DNA from: Phycisphaerales bacterium
Lineage (GTDB): Bacteria > Planctomycetota > Phycisphaerae > Phycisphaerales > UBA1924
NCBI GenBank assembly: GCA_034004365.1
Contig: JAVEWV010000009.1
Coordinates: 29,637 to 93,636 of the forward strand
DNA length: 64,000 nucleotides
Direction: 5' to 3'
Position numbers and translations under genes: made by a program. Of the stretch, positions 53,688-60,598 are shown in pieces. Each line of letters starts with the position of its first letter. The first letter of the stretch is position 1. The notes below the pieces were generated by a model that made no database searches, was not told the origin of the DNA, and was given only the letters and a program-made list of their open reading frames with translations.

Positions 53688-54407
53688 ATGGCGCGGCGTT
53701 CGATGGCGGCGGCGGTGTCTCGCAGGCTCGCGTGCGCGGCGCTCGTGGGGGTCTCGGGCACCGCATGGGCGGACGACGTCGTGGTGGTCGACCTGACCGG
53801 CGTGCGTCTGCAGAACGGGCTGAACCAGAGCGTGACGAGCGGGGCGGACACCATCGACCCCGACACCCTGTACAGCTATGTGATCGACGGCATGGTGCGG
53901 GGTGAGTCGGGCCTGCTCGCGGCGTTGGTCCCGAATCCCAGGCCGCTGGGCGAGGTGCTTGAGCTGTTCGCGGCGGGCGCATCGAGCGCGCTGGTGGGCA
54001 CGGGGTGCAACCCGAGCGGGCAGGTGCCGTTCGACGTCGTCAACGCGCCGCTCTCCGGCTCGTCGGTGGTGCTGGGCATAACGGTGAATGCGTCGGTCAC
54101 GCTGTCGGCGGGGATCGATGCGAACGGTGTGGCATACTTCAGCGCGACGAACGTGGTGCTGACGCCGTCGTCGCTGGTGGGCTCGGCGGTGTTCACGAGC
54201 GGGAGCGTGACGGTGCGGGGGCTGCGTCCGTGCCTGGCGGACTGGGACGCGTCGGGCGGCACGCCCAACAGCAGTGATTTCCTTTCCTACCTAAACGATT
54301 GGTCGCTGGGCGACGCGTGCGCCGACCTCGCGCCGCCGGGCGGGGACGGCAACTTCGACTCGTCGGACTTCCTGGCATTCCTGAACGCGTACGCGGGCGG
54401 ATGCTGA
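53688..54407 (+). CDS. secreted protein with C-terminal Cys-bracketed dockerin-like module
   Basis: AAGGAGAG precedes the ATG. Signal peptide MARRSMAAAVSRRLACAALVGVSGTAWA. Last 58 aa: CLADWDASGGTPNSSDFLSYLNDWSLGDACADLAPPGGDGNFDSSDFLAFLNAYAGGC-stop. Confidence 0.7.
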   Translation: MARRSMAAAVSRRLACAALVGVSGTAWADDVVVVDLTGVRLQNGLNQSVTSGADTIDPDTLYSYVIDGMVRGESGLLAALVPNPRPLGEVLELFAAGASSALVGTGCNPSGQVPFDVVNAPLSGSSVVLGITVNASVTLSAGIDANGVAYFSATNVVLTPSSLVGSAVFTSGSVTVRGLRPCLADWDASGGTPNSSDFLSYLNDWSLGDACADLAPPGGDGNFDSSDFLAFLNAYAGGC

Positions 54408-54442: not shown

Positions 54443-54526
54443 TGCGGGCGACAGGAATCGAACCTGCACGGCCTTTCGGCCACGGGAACCTAAATCCCGC
54501 GCGTCTGCCAGTTCCGCCACGCCCGC
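54443..54526 (-). tRNA. tRNA-Leu (anticodon UAG)
   Basis: Hand-folded cloverleaf. Acceptor GCGGGCG/CGCCCGC. 3-bp D stem. Anticodon arm CGGGA-UUUAGGU-UCCCG. Long variable arm GGCC-GAAA-GGCC. T arm GCAGG-UUCGAUU-CCUGU. Discriminator A. CCA is not encoded. Confidence 0.85.
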
Positions 54527-54665
54527 GGATTCAGCGCAATCCTAACCATGCGGACCCGTGGTTCGCGGACGCGACCCTTGAACCACCCCGCACCCTCCCG
54601 GTAGGCTCGTGGCCGGTCGCGCAGAGTGTGTGACGCGAGCAGGGGTATCCAGGGAGGAGAGCGAT

Positions 54666-57230
54666 ATGGTGCGTGCGCGTGATGTTGTTGCCGCGTGTGG
54701 ATGTGTTGTCGCTGGCGCGAGCCTCGCGGCGGGACAGGCTTTCGGTCTCGAGCCGACGAGCGCGACGGGCGAGCTTGCGAGCCCGCGCATGGTCCTGCCC
54801 GCGCCGCAGCTCGAGCTGAACGCGGGAGCACCATGGGAGACGCGGGGCGGCCCGGGCGTTCCGACGGTGTACCAGCCCGGCGTCCCCGCGGAGGGTGACG
54901 CGCCCTCGGCGTCTCGCTTCACGCCGGACGGATCGCAGATCATCGTCGCGCACCGCGACACGAAGAACCTGATCGTGTACGACGCGAACACGCGGGCGTT
55001 CGTCCGCGAGATCGTGCTGTCGGGCTCGCCGCTCGACCTCGACGTCAGCGCCAACGGCATGTACGCCGTGACGGCGAACGGGATCGAGGACACCGCGTCG
55101 ATCGTGAATCTCGCGACGGGTGTGGAGGTCGCGACGGTTGCCGTGGGTGATACGCCGGGCATCGTGCGCATCACGCCCGACTCGACGAAGGCGGTCGTGG
55201 GCAACGCGCTGAGCGCCGACTTCTCGATCATCGACCTGGCGTCGAAGACGGAGGTCAACCGCTGGAGCGGCGGCGATTTCTCCGTGACGCTCTCGTTCGC
55301 GCCCGAGAACTCCACGGTGGAGATCCGGTACGGCACGTTCGAGCTGCCCGACAGCAACACCATCCTGCACCCGCGCCGGTTCTCGAGCCAGATAGCGCTC
55401 ATCGACATCGACACGGGCACCGACACGACGCTCGCTTCGGCCGCGAACCCCGCGGGCGTGGCGCTCATCCCGGGCGGGGGCACGAAGGCGTACATCTCCC
55501 ACGCGAGCAACACGCGCACGATCAGCGTCGTCGACCTCACGACCAAGACCATCAGCCAGACATGGTCCACCACGACCGACCTGACCGGACCGATCGCGGT
55601 CGAGATGGGCGGGGCGTCGGCGGTGGTCGCGGTGCAGAACGCGGTGCGGTTCGTCAACATGACCACCGGCGCCGAAAGCACCAACCGAAACACCGCGAGC
55701 GTGAACCAGATCTACACCACCGCGGACGGCTTCTACGCCATCTGCATCGGGTTCAACGGGAGCCTGCTCCAGTACGCGACGCAGGCCATCGTCAAGAACA
55801 CCAACACCCTGGTCTCCGCGTCGCACGGCTCGGTCTCGCCCGTCGACCAGCGGGCCGCGATGTTCTCGACGACCTTCGGCGAGGACATGGTCGTGGTGAG
55901 CACCGACGGACCCTCCGGCGGGCTCGAGAGCTTCACCCTCTCGGGGCCCGAGCCCGAGGTCGACAAGCCCCGCACCGTCGCGGTCAGCCCCGACGGCAGC
56001 AAGGCCGCGGTGGTGGGCATCCTGTCGGACAGCGTCACCGTCTACAACACCGCGACGGGTGCCGTGCTCGGACGGGCCAAGACGGGCATGCGTCCCGCGG
56101 AGGCCCAGTTCACGCCGGACGGGTCGAAGATCGTGGTCGCGAATCTCGATGACGCGTTCCTGACCATCGTGGACACGACAACCTTCGCGGTGACGAACGC
56201 GCCGATCTCGCGCCGCGGCGGGATCGTCGAGATCTCGCCCGACTCGCAGACCGCGTACGTCCCGGTTATCGCCGATGGCGACGGCGTGTGGCGCGTGAAC
56301 CTGAACACGGGCACGTCGTTCGGTGGCAAGCTGCTCACGCCCTCCGCCAGCGGCGGCATGGGCGGCGTGGGATACCTCTACCAGCAGAACAGCGGCGCGG
56401 CCCTTTCGCCCGACGGTCAGACCTTCGTCACCGCGAACAGCTTCGAGAACTCCATCTCGATCATCAACACCGCGACGTGGTCCGTCGTCGCGAACGTCCC
56501 GACGGGGTCCTTCCCGACCTACGTCGCGTTCAGCCCCGATTCATCCAAGATCTACGTCTCGATCAAGAACTTCAACACGACGAGCGGCGCCTCGGACCGC
56601 GTCTCGGTCGTCAGCAACGCCGGCGCCGCGAGCGCCGTGCTCAGCAACATCACCGTGGGCGACCAGCCCTGGGTGCTCATCCCCACCGCCGACGGCCAGA
56701 AGCTCTACGTGCTCAACTATGGCAGCCAGAACATCGGCGTGGTGAACCTGAACACCAACACGCAGGTGAGCACAATCCCGATGCCGAACCTCATCAGCGA
56801 CATGGCCTACTCCGCGAGCGCGAACTGCCTCGTCGTCAACACGGGCAACTCCACCGTCACCGTCGGCAACCCGGTCGGCATCGCCTTCGCGCAGGACGGC
56901 GAGCTGAACGTCATCGATACCACCACGGACACCGTGACCGAGATCATCGACGTCGACCACGTCTCTTCCGACGTCGCGATCGACGACGACCTCACCGTCG
57001 CCGCCCTCCCCGGCATCTTCAGCGACGAGTTCATCCTCGTCGATTTCACCCCGGGCTGCGCGGGCGACTGGGATAACAGCGGCGGGCTGAACAGCTCGGA
57101 CTTCCTCGCCTACCTGAACGACTACTCCGCCCAGAATCCTGTCGCGGACCTCGCCCCGCCCGGCGGTGACGGCCTGTTCAACAGCTCCGACTTCCTGGCC
57201 TTCCTGAACCTCTACGCCGCCGGCTGCTGA
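54666..57230 (+). CDS. YVTN-type beta-propeller repeat protein with C-terminal Cys-bracketed dockerin-like module
   Basis: AGGGAGGAGAG precedes the ATG. Signal-like N-terminus. Many repeats of the type SPDGSK..V(A)N...D.(V/I)(S/T)(V/I)(I/V)D..T..V. Last 57 aa: CAGDWDNSGGLNSSDFLAYLNDYSAQNPVADLAPPGGDGLFNSSDFLAFLNLYAAGC-stop. Confidence 0.8.
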   Translation: MVRARDVVAACGCVVAGASLAAGQAFGLEPTSATGELASPRMVLPAPQLELNAGAPWETRGGPGVPTVYQPGVPAEGDAPSASRFTPDGSQIIVAHRDTKNLIVYDANTRAFVREIVLSGSPLDLDVSANGMYAVTANGIEDTASIVNLATGVEVATVAVGDTPGIVRITPDSTKAVVGNALSADFSIIDLASKTEVNRWSGGDFSVTLSFAPENSTVEIRYGTFELPDSNTILHPRRFSSQIALIDIDTGTDTTLASAANPAGVALIPGGGTKAYISHASNTRTISVVDLTTKTISQTWSTTTDLTGPIAVEMGGASAVVAVQNAVRFVNMTTGAESTNRNTASVNQIYTTADGFYAICIGFNGSLLQYATQAIVKNTNTLVSASHGSVSPVDQRAAMFSTTFGEDMVVVSTDGPSGGLESFTLSGPEPEVDKPRTVAVSPDGSKAAVVGILSDSVTVYNTATGAVLGRAKTGMRPAEAQFTPDGSKIVVANLDDAFLTIVDTTTFAVTNAPISRRGGIVEISPDSQTAYVPVIADGDGVWRVNLNTGTSFGGKLLTPSASGGMGGVGYLYQQNSGAALSPDGQTFVTANSFENSISIINTATWSVVANVPTGSFPTYVAFSPDSSKIYVSIKNFNTTSGASDRVSVVSNAGAASAVLSNITVGDQPWVLIPTADGQKLYVLNYGSQNIGVVNLNTNTQVSTIPMPNLISDMAYSASANCLVVNTGNSTVTVGNPVGIAFAQDGELNVIDTTTDTVTEIIDVDHVSSDVAIDDDLTVAALPGIFSDEFILVDFTPGCAGDWDNSGGLNSSDFLAYLNDYSAQNPVADLAPPGGDGLFNSSDFLAFLNLYAAGC
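57057..57230 (+). repeat. dockerin-module coding repeat, copy 1
   Basis: 174 nt that align without gaps to 60348-60521. I hand-counted about 16 mismatches. The last ~54 nt differ at one position. Confidence 0.8.
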
Positions 57231-57271
57231 AGCCCCTCGGCGGCGAGAATCGCCACATCACGCCTCCGATT

Positions 57272-57308
57272 CCCCCGTCCGCCTCCGAGCGGGCGGGGGA
57301 TTTTCTTT
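57272..57308 (+). terminator. rho-independent terminator
   Basis: 11-bp stem CCCCCGTCCGC/GCGGGCGGGGG (one G-U pair), loop CTCCGA, then ATTTTCTTT. Confidence 0.65.
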
Positions 57309-58026: not shown

Positions 58027-58827
58027 TTGGCCCGTTCCTGCCCGACGCGTGTTCCGCTCGTTGCACTCCTGCTGCGGAGGCTTCTCCCGTTGCGCTTCGA
58101 ACGTCGGGCGAATCCGGGCCGATCGGGCTCGGGCTTCACGCTCATTGAATTGCTCGTGGTCATCGCGATCATCGCGCTGCTGATCGGCGTGCTCCTGCCC
58201 GCACTGGGCTCGGCACGTGAGAGTGCGCGGGGCGTCAAGTGCCTCGCGAACCTTCGCTCGATCGGGCAGTCGGTGGCGCTGTACCACAACGCCTTCGATG
58301 GGCACTACCCCCTCTCCAGCCACGCCACCGGATCGAGCATCGATCCCGGCGCATGGCTGTCGTCGCTGGTCGAGTACGGCCTGATCGACGACACCCGCTA
58401 CTGCCCGACCGACCTCCAGCGCAACAAGACGACAGCCGCCGATTTCGCACGCACGACCAGCTACATCACCAACGACCACTTCGAGCCGCTCACCGCGGGC
58501 ATCGACTTCGATCCGTTCAGCGGCCGCACGCTCCCCGGGGGGCGGACGCGCGCGATCACACGGATCGAGCAGATCCCGCGTCCGACGGCGACGATCTACG
58601 CGGTGGAAGCGGCGGACCCGCTCGATGCGGGCGCGGTGGTGGACCATCTGCACTCTGTGGGGTGGGCACGAGCGGAGCAGGTCGCGCAGCAGATCGCGGT
58701 CGAGCGGCACAAGGGATCGGCGTCGTACCTCTTCGCCGATTTGCACGCCGCGGCGATCCCGTGGGGCGCGTTGCGAGACGAGTTCTCGCCCGAGACGAGC
58801 CCGTTCAATCCCGAGACCGCGCGCTAG
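58027..58827 (+). CDS. prepilin-type N-terminal cleavage/methylation domain protein (H-X9-DG / DUF1559-like)
   Basis: [45 protein letters not shown] is the type IV pilin-like leader and helix. C-terminal [12 protein letters not shown] resembles H-X9-DG. A TTG at 58090 would give a more usual short leader. Confidence 0.8.
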
Positions 58828-58936: not shown

Positions 58937-59587
58937 ATGAAGATTCGTACGACCGCCGCCATCGTTCTCGCCGCCCTCGCCCCCGCCGCCCTCGCGCAGG
59001 ACCACGGGCACATGACCGTGGATACCGCGAGCGGCACGCCGGGCGATCAGATCGTCATCAGCACGTACCCCACCGAGACGAACTTCTCGATCGTGGGCGG
59101 CGTGCTGCACCGCGCGGGCGTCCCCGCCGTGTTCGACCTGACCGATTGGCAGCCCTCGGGCTCGTTCCAGGGCTGGTTCCTGGGCCAGACCATGACGCTC
59201 ACCGCCGACTTCTTCGTCGCGACGGGGCGCCTCGATGGGGGCAATTTCGCCTTCGAGGTCGCGGGCCTGACGCCCGAGGGCGGCGCCGGCCCGGGCCGCT
59301 TCGCGATGGTGAGCCAGCACGGCACCGACTTCGAGCTCGAGGCCGACAGCGACGGCGCGACTCGTGCGGATCGCACCTGGGTCATCGGCTTCAACATGCA
59401 TCCGCACGGGCAGCGCGTCATGCTCCAGGGCTCCGGGCTGTACCGCGTCGACCTCGTCGCGTGGGACACCAACGGCGTGTACACCGACTCTGCACCCGTT
59501 TCTTTCTACGTGCAGACGCCCGCGCCCGGCGCGCTCGCCACGCTCGGCGGTGGGCTTGTGCTCGTCTCGCGTCGCCGTCGGCGCTGA
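58937..59587 (+). CDS. secreted His-cluster domain protein with PEP-CTERM-like (P-A-P) sorting signal
   Basis: Signal MKIRTTAAIVLAALAPAALA|QDHGHMTVDT. C-terminus TPAPGALATLGGGLVLVSRRRRR. Paralogous to 59748-60521. Confidence 0.7.
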   Translation: MKIRTTAAIVLAALAPAALAQDHGHMTVDTASGTPGDQIVISTYPTETNFSIVGGVLHRAGVPAVFDLTDWQPSGSFQGWFLGQTMTLTADFFVATGRLDGGNFAFEVAGLTPEGGAGPGRFAMVSQHGTDFELEADSDGATRADRTWVIGFNMHPHGQRVMLQGSGLYRVDLVAWDTNGVYTDSAPVSFYVQTPAPGALATLGGGLVLVSRRRRR

Positions 59588-59747: not shown

Positions 59748-60521
59748 ATGAGCACACGAGCCATCGCGGGACTGATCGTCGCAGCGTTCGCCTCCGCGGC
59801 GATCGCGCAGGACCACCACCACATGACCGTCGACACCTTCACCAGCCTCGACGGGCCCAAGATCAAGATCGTCGTCGGATTCCTCGGAGGCGAGGAGTCC
59901 TTCTCGCTCGATGAAAATGGCACCCTGCTCTTTGACGGCACGCCGCACACGTACGAGCTGACGAGCGTCTTCTCGAGCGGCTCGCTCGCGGGCTGGGGCG
60001 CGGTGCAGGGACTCACGCTCACGAGCGACTACTACTTCGCGACCGGACGCCTCGTCGGAGGAAACTTCCACTTCGAGATCACCAATGCCGAGCGTCTGAA
60101 CGGCTCCACCTCCGCGTTCGCGCTGGGATACTTCCCGAGCGCGACGCCCTTCGTCGACGCGCGCAGCGACGGGGCCGATCGCGCCGCCCGCAGCTACACC
60201 GTCGGCAACGGCGGGCACCAGCACGGGCAGTTCATGGCGCTCCAGAATCCGGGCGTGTATCGCATCACCCTCGCCGCGTGGGATTCCAACGGTGTGTATC
60301 TCGATTCGGACCCCGTGAACTTCCTCGTCGAGGTCCCGGGCTGGACGTGCGCGGGCGACTGGGACGAGAGCGGCGAACTCAACAGCTCGGACTTCCTCGC
60401 CTACCTGAACGATTACTCGGCCCAGAACCCTGCTGCGGACCTCGCCCCGCCCGGGGGCGACGGGGTGTTCAACAGCTCCGACTTCCTCGCCTTCCTGAAC
60501 CTCTACGCCGCCGGCTGCTGA
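59748..60521 (+). CDS. secreted His-cluster domain protein with C-terminal Cys-bracketed dockerin-like module
   Basis: Signal MSTRAIAGLIVAAFASAAIA|QDHHHMTVDT. Last 57 aa: CAGDWDESGELNSSDFLAYLNDYSAQNPAADLAPPGGDGVFNSSDFLAFLNLYAAGC-stop. Confidence 0.75.
   Translation: MSTRAIAGLIVAAFASAAIAQDHHHMTVDTFTSLDGPKIKIVVGFLGGEESFSLDENGTLLFDGTPHTYELTSVFSSGSLAGWGAVQGLTLTSDYYFATGRLVGGNFHFEITNAERLNGSTSAFALGYFPSATPFVDARSDGADRAARSYTVGNGGHQHGQFMALQNPGVYRITLAAWDSNGVYLDSDPVNFLVEVPGWTCAGDWDESGELNSSDFLAYLNDYSAQNPAADLAPPGGDGVFNSSDFLAFLNLYAAGC
60348..60521 (+). repeat. dockerin-module coding repeat, copy 2
   Basis: See copy 1 (57057-57230). Confidence 0.8.
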
Positions 60522-60553: not shown

Positions 60554-60598
60554 AACCCGGGGCGCGCACCGCTGCACGCGTGCCCCGGGTTTCGCTTT
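60554..60598 (+). terminator. terminator-like hairpin
   Basis: About 13-bp stem AACCCGGGGCGCGC/GCGTGCCCCGGGTT with a 10-nt loop, followed by TCGCTTT. Confidence 0.55.

Follow-up and report, generated by a model that had tools for sequence, protein, structure and literature searches.

Near-identical dockerin-like tails of two unrelated neighbouring genes in a Phycisphaerales genome point to a probable homologous replacement within a large C-terminal module family

Cohesin-dockerin pairs are known to display a species-specific sequence flavour. The "planctosome" hypothesis proposed for Nemodlikiaceae rests on cohesin-dockerin pairs (PMC6461901), and concerted evolution by interlocus gene conversion has been reviewed in multigene families (PMC3966226), including prokaryotic cases (PMC8223754, PMC4632066). 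A family of C-terminal tails, the GC-type dockerin domain-anchored proteins, is already catalogued as NCBIfam NF041540 (curated cut-off of 29 bits). Our literature search found papers neither on "GC-type dockerin" nor on a connection between dockerins and gene conversion, and the texts found described neither the copy number of the family nor its genome-specific variants. Here, we analysed a 64,000-nt stretch of DNA from a Phycisphaerales bacterium (hereafter the window: forward strand of GenBank assembly GCA_034004365.1, contig JAVEWV010000009.1, positions 29,637 to 93,636), corresponding to C16:29637-93636 of genome G000, a draft of 3.31 Mb in 41 contigs with 68.9% G+C and a completeness of 94.6%. 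The window contains three members of this family, two of which, carried by a beta-propeller gene (gene A) and a His-cluster gene (gene B), are strongly alike. We consider it likely that this similarity reflects gene conversion between two pre-existing tails in the G000 lineage. The features on which the comparison rests are the following:

57057..57230, plus strand: module copy A, C-terminal GC-type dockerin tail of the beta-propeller gene, 57 codons and a stop; NF041540 48.3 bits.
60348..60521, plus strand: module copy B, C-terminal tail of the His-cluster gene, 57 codons and a stop; NF041540 54.8 bits.
54231..54407, plus strand: module copy C, 58 codons and a stop, an ordinary diverged family member; NF041540 44.5 bits.
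54663..57056, plus strand: gene A passenger, with YVTN/YncE-type beta-propeller repeats (Pfam YNCE, Lactonase and NCBIfam beta_rpt_yvtn matches).
59748..60347, plus strand: gene B passenger, a signal peptide followed by the His-cluster domain, whose orthologues B' and B'' (described below) have the same junction with the module, VEVPGWT/C (slash at the border).

Copies A and B aligned without gaps over 174 nt with 16 mismatches (90.8% identity), 12 of them at third codon positions and with four amino-acid differences in total, and a single mismatch (position 141) occurred in the last 54 nt. These exact values agree with those counted by hand in an earlier note made from the sequence alone, which had proposed a recent domain transfer or an ongoing gene conversion. 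The similarity stopped sharply at the module borders, as that note had also claimed: outside the module, ungapped identity fell to 33-40% on the upstream and 20-39% on the downstream side, the random level for a genome of 69% G+C, BLAST found no similarity between the two passengers, and no 3' untranslated sequence was common to both copies. Gapped blastn lengthened the alignment by only 23 nt upstream, via an 8-nt match (CTCGTCGA) that sits in the final beta-strand of both passengers. We treated this match as chance, and rejected an upstream homology, because orthologues show each strand to be native to its own passenger family. Copy C, described beforehand as clearly more diverged, was 67% identical to both A and B (pS 0.56-0.57; proportions of synonymous and nonsynonymous differences, pS and pN, were computed by the Nei-Gojobori method), near the family median of 69%.

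Among 3262 module copy pairs of the genome ranked by nucleotide identity (median 69%), A-B came 7th. Both copies were reciprocal nearest neighbours, with 90.6% mutual identity where their next-best matches reached 81% and 79.5% (a gap of about 10 points), were sisters with 100/99 support in a tree of 69 genome copies, and carried the same one-codon deletion in their first loop. It could be argued that purifying selection on the peptide and a G+C-rich codon bias suffice to yield 91% identity in the absence of any recent common ancestry, and the baseline is indeed high, unrelated copies having 69% of their bases and 64% of their codons at identical residues in common. By contrast, A and B used the same codon at 44 of 53 identical residues (83%), against 35.1 expected from column-specific usage (z 2.85) and 32.2 from pooled usage (z 3.6). 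Codon bias and peptide conservation are insufficient because of this codon excess, the reciprocal proximity, the sister support and the common deletion; we hold such an origin, which the earlier note had itself named as the outcome that would overturn its reading, to be highly improbable. The A and B tails rather have a common ancestor much younger than the family. An artefact, in which the assembly of this 41-contig draft would have collapsed or mis-joined the repeated modules, deserves next to no credit given the 16 differing sites, the intact reading frames, the distinct flanks and the colinearity of the gene B locus with two independent metagenome contigs.

These two contigs, both from ENA metagenomes, provided orthologues from gene B's 90% protein cluster: B' on L064, which matches 1.8 kb of the window at 77.8% identity, and B'' on L065, 81.8% identical to the window. 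On L064 the gene order was conserved, with a paralogue bearing a PEP-CTERM-like tail (L064:2-346), B' (519-1292) and a DoxX gene. The first of these corresponds, in the window, to a gene located immediately upstream of gene B:

58937..59587, plus strand: gene B tandem paralogue, with a PEP-CTERM/MYXO-CTERM-like tail in place of the module.

This paralogue had 44% amino-acid identity with gene B across the passenger, ending at VQTP, and its tail matched TIGR03901 with 17.9 bits, under the cut-off of 20. In orthologues from other genera the gene B passenger was found with other anchors: a PEP-CTERM-like tail in G013, and dockerins of other types in both G021 and G025. The paralogue and the G013 orthologue could thus suggest a first-time domain shuffling, in which a gene B once endowed with a PEP-CTERM-like tail gained the 3' end of gene A by illegitimate copy-paste, and elsewhere in the genome the similarity of the module pair C22:11326/7835 overruns the module by 22 nt on the upstream side and by 16 nt on the downstream side, as such copy-paste would produce. 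However, B' and B'' both carried the same 57-residue module, one-codon deletion included, at the identical junction, while the neighbouring paralogue kept its PEP-CTERM-like tail in L064. The arrangement with two anchors thus predates the similarity between A and B, and the choice of anchor appears stable across close relatives. Together with the unrelated 3' untranslated sequences of A and B, this makes a first acquisition very unlikely, and the domain transfer put forward earlier does not hold in this sense for gene B, which, from the comparison with its orthologues, bore the module before its split from the B' and B'' lineages.

A prior tail can be shown for gene A too. Its single-copy orthologues in five other genera (G029, G034, G024, G017 and G010) all ended with a C-terminal, Cys-bracketed dockerin-like tail, indicating that gene A had a tail of the same kind before the event. 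The comparison of the cassette on orthologous passengers, which the earlier note had called for, thus found it in B' and B'' and found dockerin-like tails in all five gene A orthologues, so that, as expected for gene conversion, the recipient already had a homologous segment. With both genes already tailed, the event would therefore be the overwriting of a homologous tail, i.e. gene conversion, whichever its direction.

A comparison of paralogues with orthologues favoured an event in the G000 lineage. Over the 174 nt of the module, A and B differed at 16 positions, against 28 for B-B', 28 for B-B'' and 26 for B'-B''. Copy A, with 25 differences from B' and 32 from B'', was thus at no greater distance from B' than copy B. 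Site-wise, the excess of similarity of A-B was 6:18 over B-B' (p 0.023) and 9:21 over B-B'' (p 0.043), so that the paralogous segments were more alike than the orthologous ones, as gene conversion predicts, with a borderline outcome of the approximately unbiased (AU) test. In a tree with all genome copies as outgroups, the topology was (B',(B'',(A,B))), with supports of 100/100 for the four-member clade and 98/91 for A+B, and a 16-row tree gave A+B a support of 93/91. When sites were polarised with eight outgroup copies, five to six derived states were common to A+B versus two common to B+B'+B''. Furthermore, the synonymous divergence of the module exceeded that of the passenger between gene B orthologues (0.55 vs 0.36 for B-B', 0.42 vs 0.32 for B-B''), which is expected if the tail of at least one lineage was replaced by a non-orthologous copy.

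The main competing explanation is that A and B underwent one older transfer or conversion, before the split from the B' and B'' lineages, and have descended vertically since, A and B now looking closest through rate differences or through overwriting of the modules of the relatives. Several observations speak for it or against a conversion in the G000 lineage. With 171 sites only, the AU test did not reject the placement of A outside a B+B'+B'' clade (p 0.24 on the full set of copies and 0.063 on 16 rows), and two polarised sites favoured the B-only clade. The pS of A-B (0.278, i.e. 11 of 39.5 sites, for a dS of about 0.35 and a pN of 0.038) was not significantly under the pS of 0.32-0.36 between gene B orthologue passengers. 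In addition, the excess of module over passenger divergence could stem from events in the relatives and not in G000, and the A-B mismatches were spread along the module and not in a mosaic, with none of the internal tract boundaries that constitute the classical proof of conversion. Finally, protein searches with the C-terminal half of gene A and with its last 249 residues returned no orthologue from close relatives above 53% identity. Against the older event stand the lower count of A-B differences, the distance of A to B', which is no larger than that of B, and the A+B bootstrap values of 93-98. We thus regard it as doubtful, the grouping of A with B over a B-clade tree being suggestive, not conclusive, on these sequences.

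A calibrator for the age of the A-B divergence was provided by the ENA contig L060 (1225 nt), from a congeneric relative, which is colinear with another module-bearing gene of the genome (C24:20806) at 88.6% identity. The pS between these orthologues was 0.174 for the passenger and 0.143 for the module, so the tail of C24:20806 has stayed with its own gene and evolved vertically since the species split, a strictly vertical behaviour that also counts in favour of an older A-B event. On this scale, the common ancestor of A and B is no younger than a split between congeneric species. Of the mode and tempo announced in the earlier note, gene conversion stands as the best explanation, whereas "recent" and "ongoing" are unsupported, because the A-B pS of 0.278 exceeds the 0.17 found between congeneric orthologues.

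Copies A and B are two members of an anchor-module family of about 86 copies, and in our preferred reading one of these neighbouring tails would have been overwritten by the other, in either direction, in the G000 lineage. The overwriting would have proceeded by interlocus gene conversion, a non-reciprocal form of homologous recombination, with the two direct repeats 3.3 kb apart as partners, and the tract would have covered the whole module, from the first Cys codon to the stop codon, which are the limits of the homology. After the conversion, each copy would have gained about five private substitutions. While the sister relation of the tails, their sharp borders and the prior tails of both genes can be read from the alignments, we infer this recombination mechanism and its timing after the split from the B' and B'' relatives. 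Identical runs of 32-33 nt between A and B, and of at least 23 nt in about 17% of the copy pairs, indicate that substrates for homologous recombination exist.

At the genome scale, 87 matches to NF041540 were found, 86 of them over the cut-off, nearly all C-terminal and on otherwise unrelated proteins. Together with the sharp borders, this agrees with the view that the tail behaves as a portable cassette. The search for further near-identical copies, recommended earlier, was fruitful: at least six other pairs equalled or approached A-B in similarity, and four of these sat on unrelated passengers. Pairs with passengers lacking detectable similarity were C22:11326/7835 (95.4%, 3.5 kb apart) and C23:79190/81943 (93.1%, 2.7 kb apart), and unrelated passengers on different contigs were also concerned (C30:17636/C32:13643, 93.1%; C3:15938/C41:110350, 89.7%). 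Physical proximity mattered: 46 of the 87 modules had another module within 6 kb, the median module identity was 76% for pairs at most 6 kb apart but 68-70% for distant ones, and unrelated-passenger pairs reached 88% identity in 3 of 28 cases within 6 kb versus 4 of the remaining 3318 (odds ratio 99, p 2e-5). Adjacent genes again provided the top pairs in the related genus G013, with a weak overall proximity trend (p 0.076). The contrast in synonymous divergence between converted and adjacent sequence, inapplicable to A-B with their non-homologous flanks, was observed in three tandem paralogues of contig C30, whose passengers had 34-48% amino-acid identity (pS 0.54-0.60) for modules 91-94% identical (pS 0.15-0.16). 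The family median pS of 0.50, to which the 0.278 of A-B is clearly inferior, corresponds to the saturation floor under the codon bias of this genome. Because most of the roughly 3400 copy pairs lie at this floor, homogenisation is sporadic and local, not continuous, and any such process would be slow and episodic.

Several side observations concern the distribution of the modules. On the ENA contigs L061 and L062, a module at 520-701 ended a 213-residue protein whose tail was 90% identical to the module C32:13643 and whose passenger had no DNA match in G000, one module subtype being thus found on different passengers across organisms. On the ENA contig L063, syntenic with the array C30:35542-38927, a much shorter module-bearing protein of 247 residues was encoded, and close relatives seem to vary in this tandem array. 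When metagenome contigs were scanned with an exact pattern of the common 3' end of the module, no match was obtained. In G000, a 329-residue frame (C40:2894-3469) contained three tandem internal dockerin-like modules without bracketing cysteines, and this protein could be adaptor- or scaffold-like.

The abundance of the module varied from 0 to more than 110 copies per genome among 24 genera of the same family, several genera having none while sister genera had more than 100, and module-rich genomes held 50-118 copies per 3-4 Mb. Module length was genome-specific, with 210-213 nt in G002, 162 nt in G004 and G013 and 174 nt in G000. In a tree of 8-12 modules sampled from each of six genomes, five genomes formed single clades (support 97-100), and the changes of genome label along the tree numbered five, the minimum. 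Orthologous passengers also carried the variant of their own genome: the tail of the gene A orthologue of G024 fell within the G024 clade, apart from copy A, and that of G017 had the G017 signature. These patterns suggest a long-term concerted evolution of the tail family within genomes, via conversion, turnover or co-evolution with a partner. They also form the basis of a tentative, broader reading, which we put forward as possible only, whereby the GC-type dockerin would be a proteome-wide, genus-specific address tag, and local conversion, acting in episodes, would keep its many copies compatible with a receptor or sorting machine other than a cohesin. If so, the A-B pair would be one visible step in the co-evolution of tag and receptor across the surface proteome.

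Other features of the locus complete this description. Strong hairpins had been announced 25-45 nt past both copies, and were found at such distances:

57271..57300 (stem), plus strand: terminator-like hairpin after gene A, a 12-pair stem then the U-run TTTTCTTT, 40 nt past the stop.
60556..60598 (stem about 60556-60589), plus strand: terminator-like hairpin and U-run after gene B, then UUUCGCUUU, 34 nt past the stop.

Both thus combine a G+C-rich hairpin with a U-run just past the stop, as in intrinsic terminators. The two hairpins were unlike each other and not homologous, and the one after gene B (fold of -57.5 kcal/mol, z -5.15) was missed by a simple terminator scanner. The start of gene A is likely the ATG at 54663, which gives a signal-peptide-like N-terminus; the GTG at 54609, listed as its start, lies nearer the tRNA gene and is probably too far upstream. 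This tRNA-Leu gene (anticodon TAG; 54443-54526, minus strand) stands between the gene carrying copy C and gene A. Between genes A and B, a DUF1559-like gene with a prepilin-type N-terminus (FTLIELLVV), typical of Planctomycetota, occupies 58027-58827.

The family being already catalogued and the process known, we report no new mechanism, and the event itself is not exceptional. What the locus would provide is a case of a surface-anchor tail exchanged between unrelated neighbouring genes of a member of the Phycisphaerae by homologous replacement, with orthologues as controls. For annotation, the similarity of such tails carries no information on the relatedness of the passengers; for assembly, a draft genome of this kind holds dozens of near-repeats of 170 nt. 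The case also bears on what these tails bind in planctomycetes devoid of cohesins, and on how tails and partner stay matched.

Set against described systems, the modules of the window do not differ from NF041540 members: A, B and C exceeded the cut-off, lie at the C-terminus, comprise 57-58 residues starting with a Cys and end with Gly-Cys-stop, as do most copies, and NCBI names the gene A homologues of Phycisphaerales "GC-type dockerin domain-anchored protein". As in cellulosomal type I dockerins (PF00404; e.g. 1OHZ chain B), two similar loop-helix segments are predicted (NSSDFLAYLN and NSSDFLAFLN), the two internal repeats of the A and B modules being identical at 29-30 of 36 nt. An AlphaFold2 model of copy B, built on 36 genome copies, had a pLDDT of 95 with helices at 13-24 and 43-55. 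The first repeat of A and B has the 12-residue loop D-x-D-x-S-G-x-x-N-x-x-D: the deletion present in A, B, B' and B'' gives this loop the canonical EF-hand spacing, while most other copies have 13 residues. Unlike type I dockerins, the G000 modules have a longer second loop and bracketing cysteines, and their passengers are not carbohydrate-active enzymes. The name dockerin given in the earlier note is thus valid in the sense of NF041540 only, since the Pfam Dockerin_1 gathering threshold (22.9 bits) was missed by copy B (15.3 bits) and copy A had no match. The variants of the related genera G004 and G013 passed it with 24.5 and 32.6 bits. The best PDB sequence matches were all dockerins, with E-values of 0.1-0.9, not significant for so small a domain, and the best Foldseek match, the dockerin 2ozn_B (TM 0.54, E 1.8), was likewise not significant. 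The module is therefore weakly related to type I dockerins, and may work like one.

The tails are also reminiscent of the planctosome through dockerin-bearing, non-cellulolytic surface proteins in Phycisphaerae, from which they differ by the partner, Pfam cohesin (PF00963) giving no match at E <=0.01 in the 94.6%-complete genome despite about 86 dockerin-like tails. As with "choice-of-anchor" and PEP-CTERM-type tails (NF038117, NF038134, TIGR03901), the gene B passenger occurs with differing C-terminal anchors; unlike what these models describe, the matches of the window lie under their cut-offs and the choice of anchor is stable in close relatives. Finally, the A-B pair resembles concerted evolution by interlocus conversion in that the paralogous tails are more alike than the orthologous ones, their likeness does not extend past the homologous segment and proximity has an effect. 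It departs from known multigene conversion by its sporadic homogenisation, most pairs standing at the synonymous saturation floor, and by its unit, a 171-nt domain module that has about 86 potential partners and ends genes unrelated in their remaining parts.

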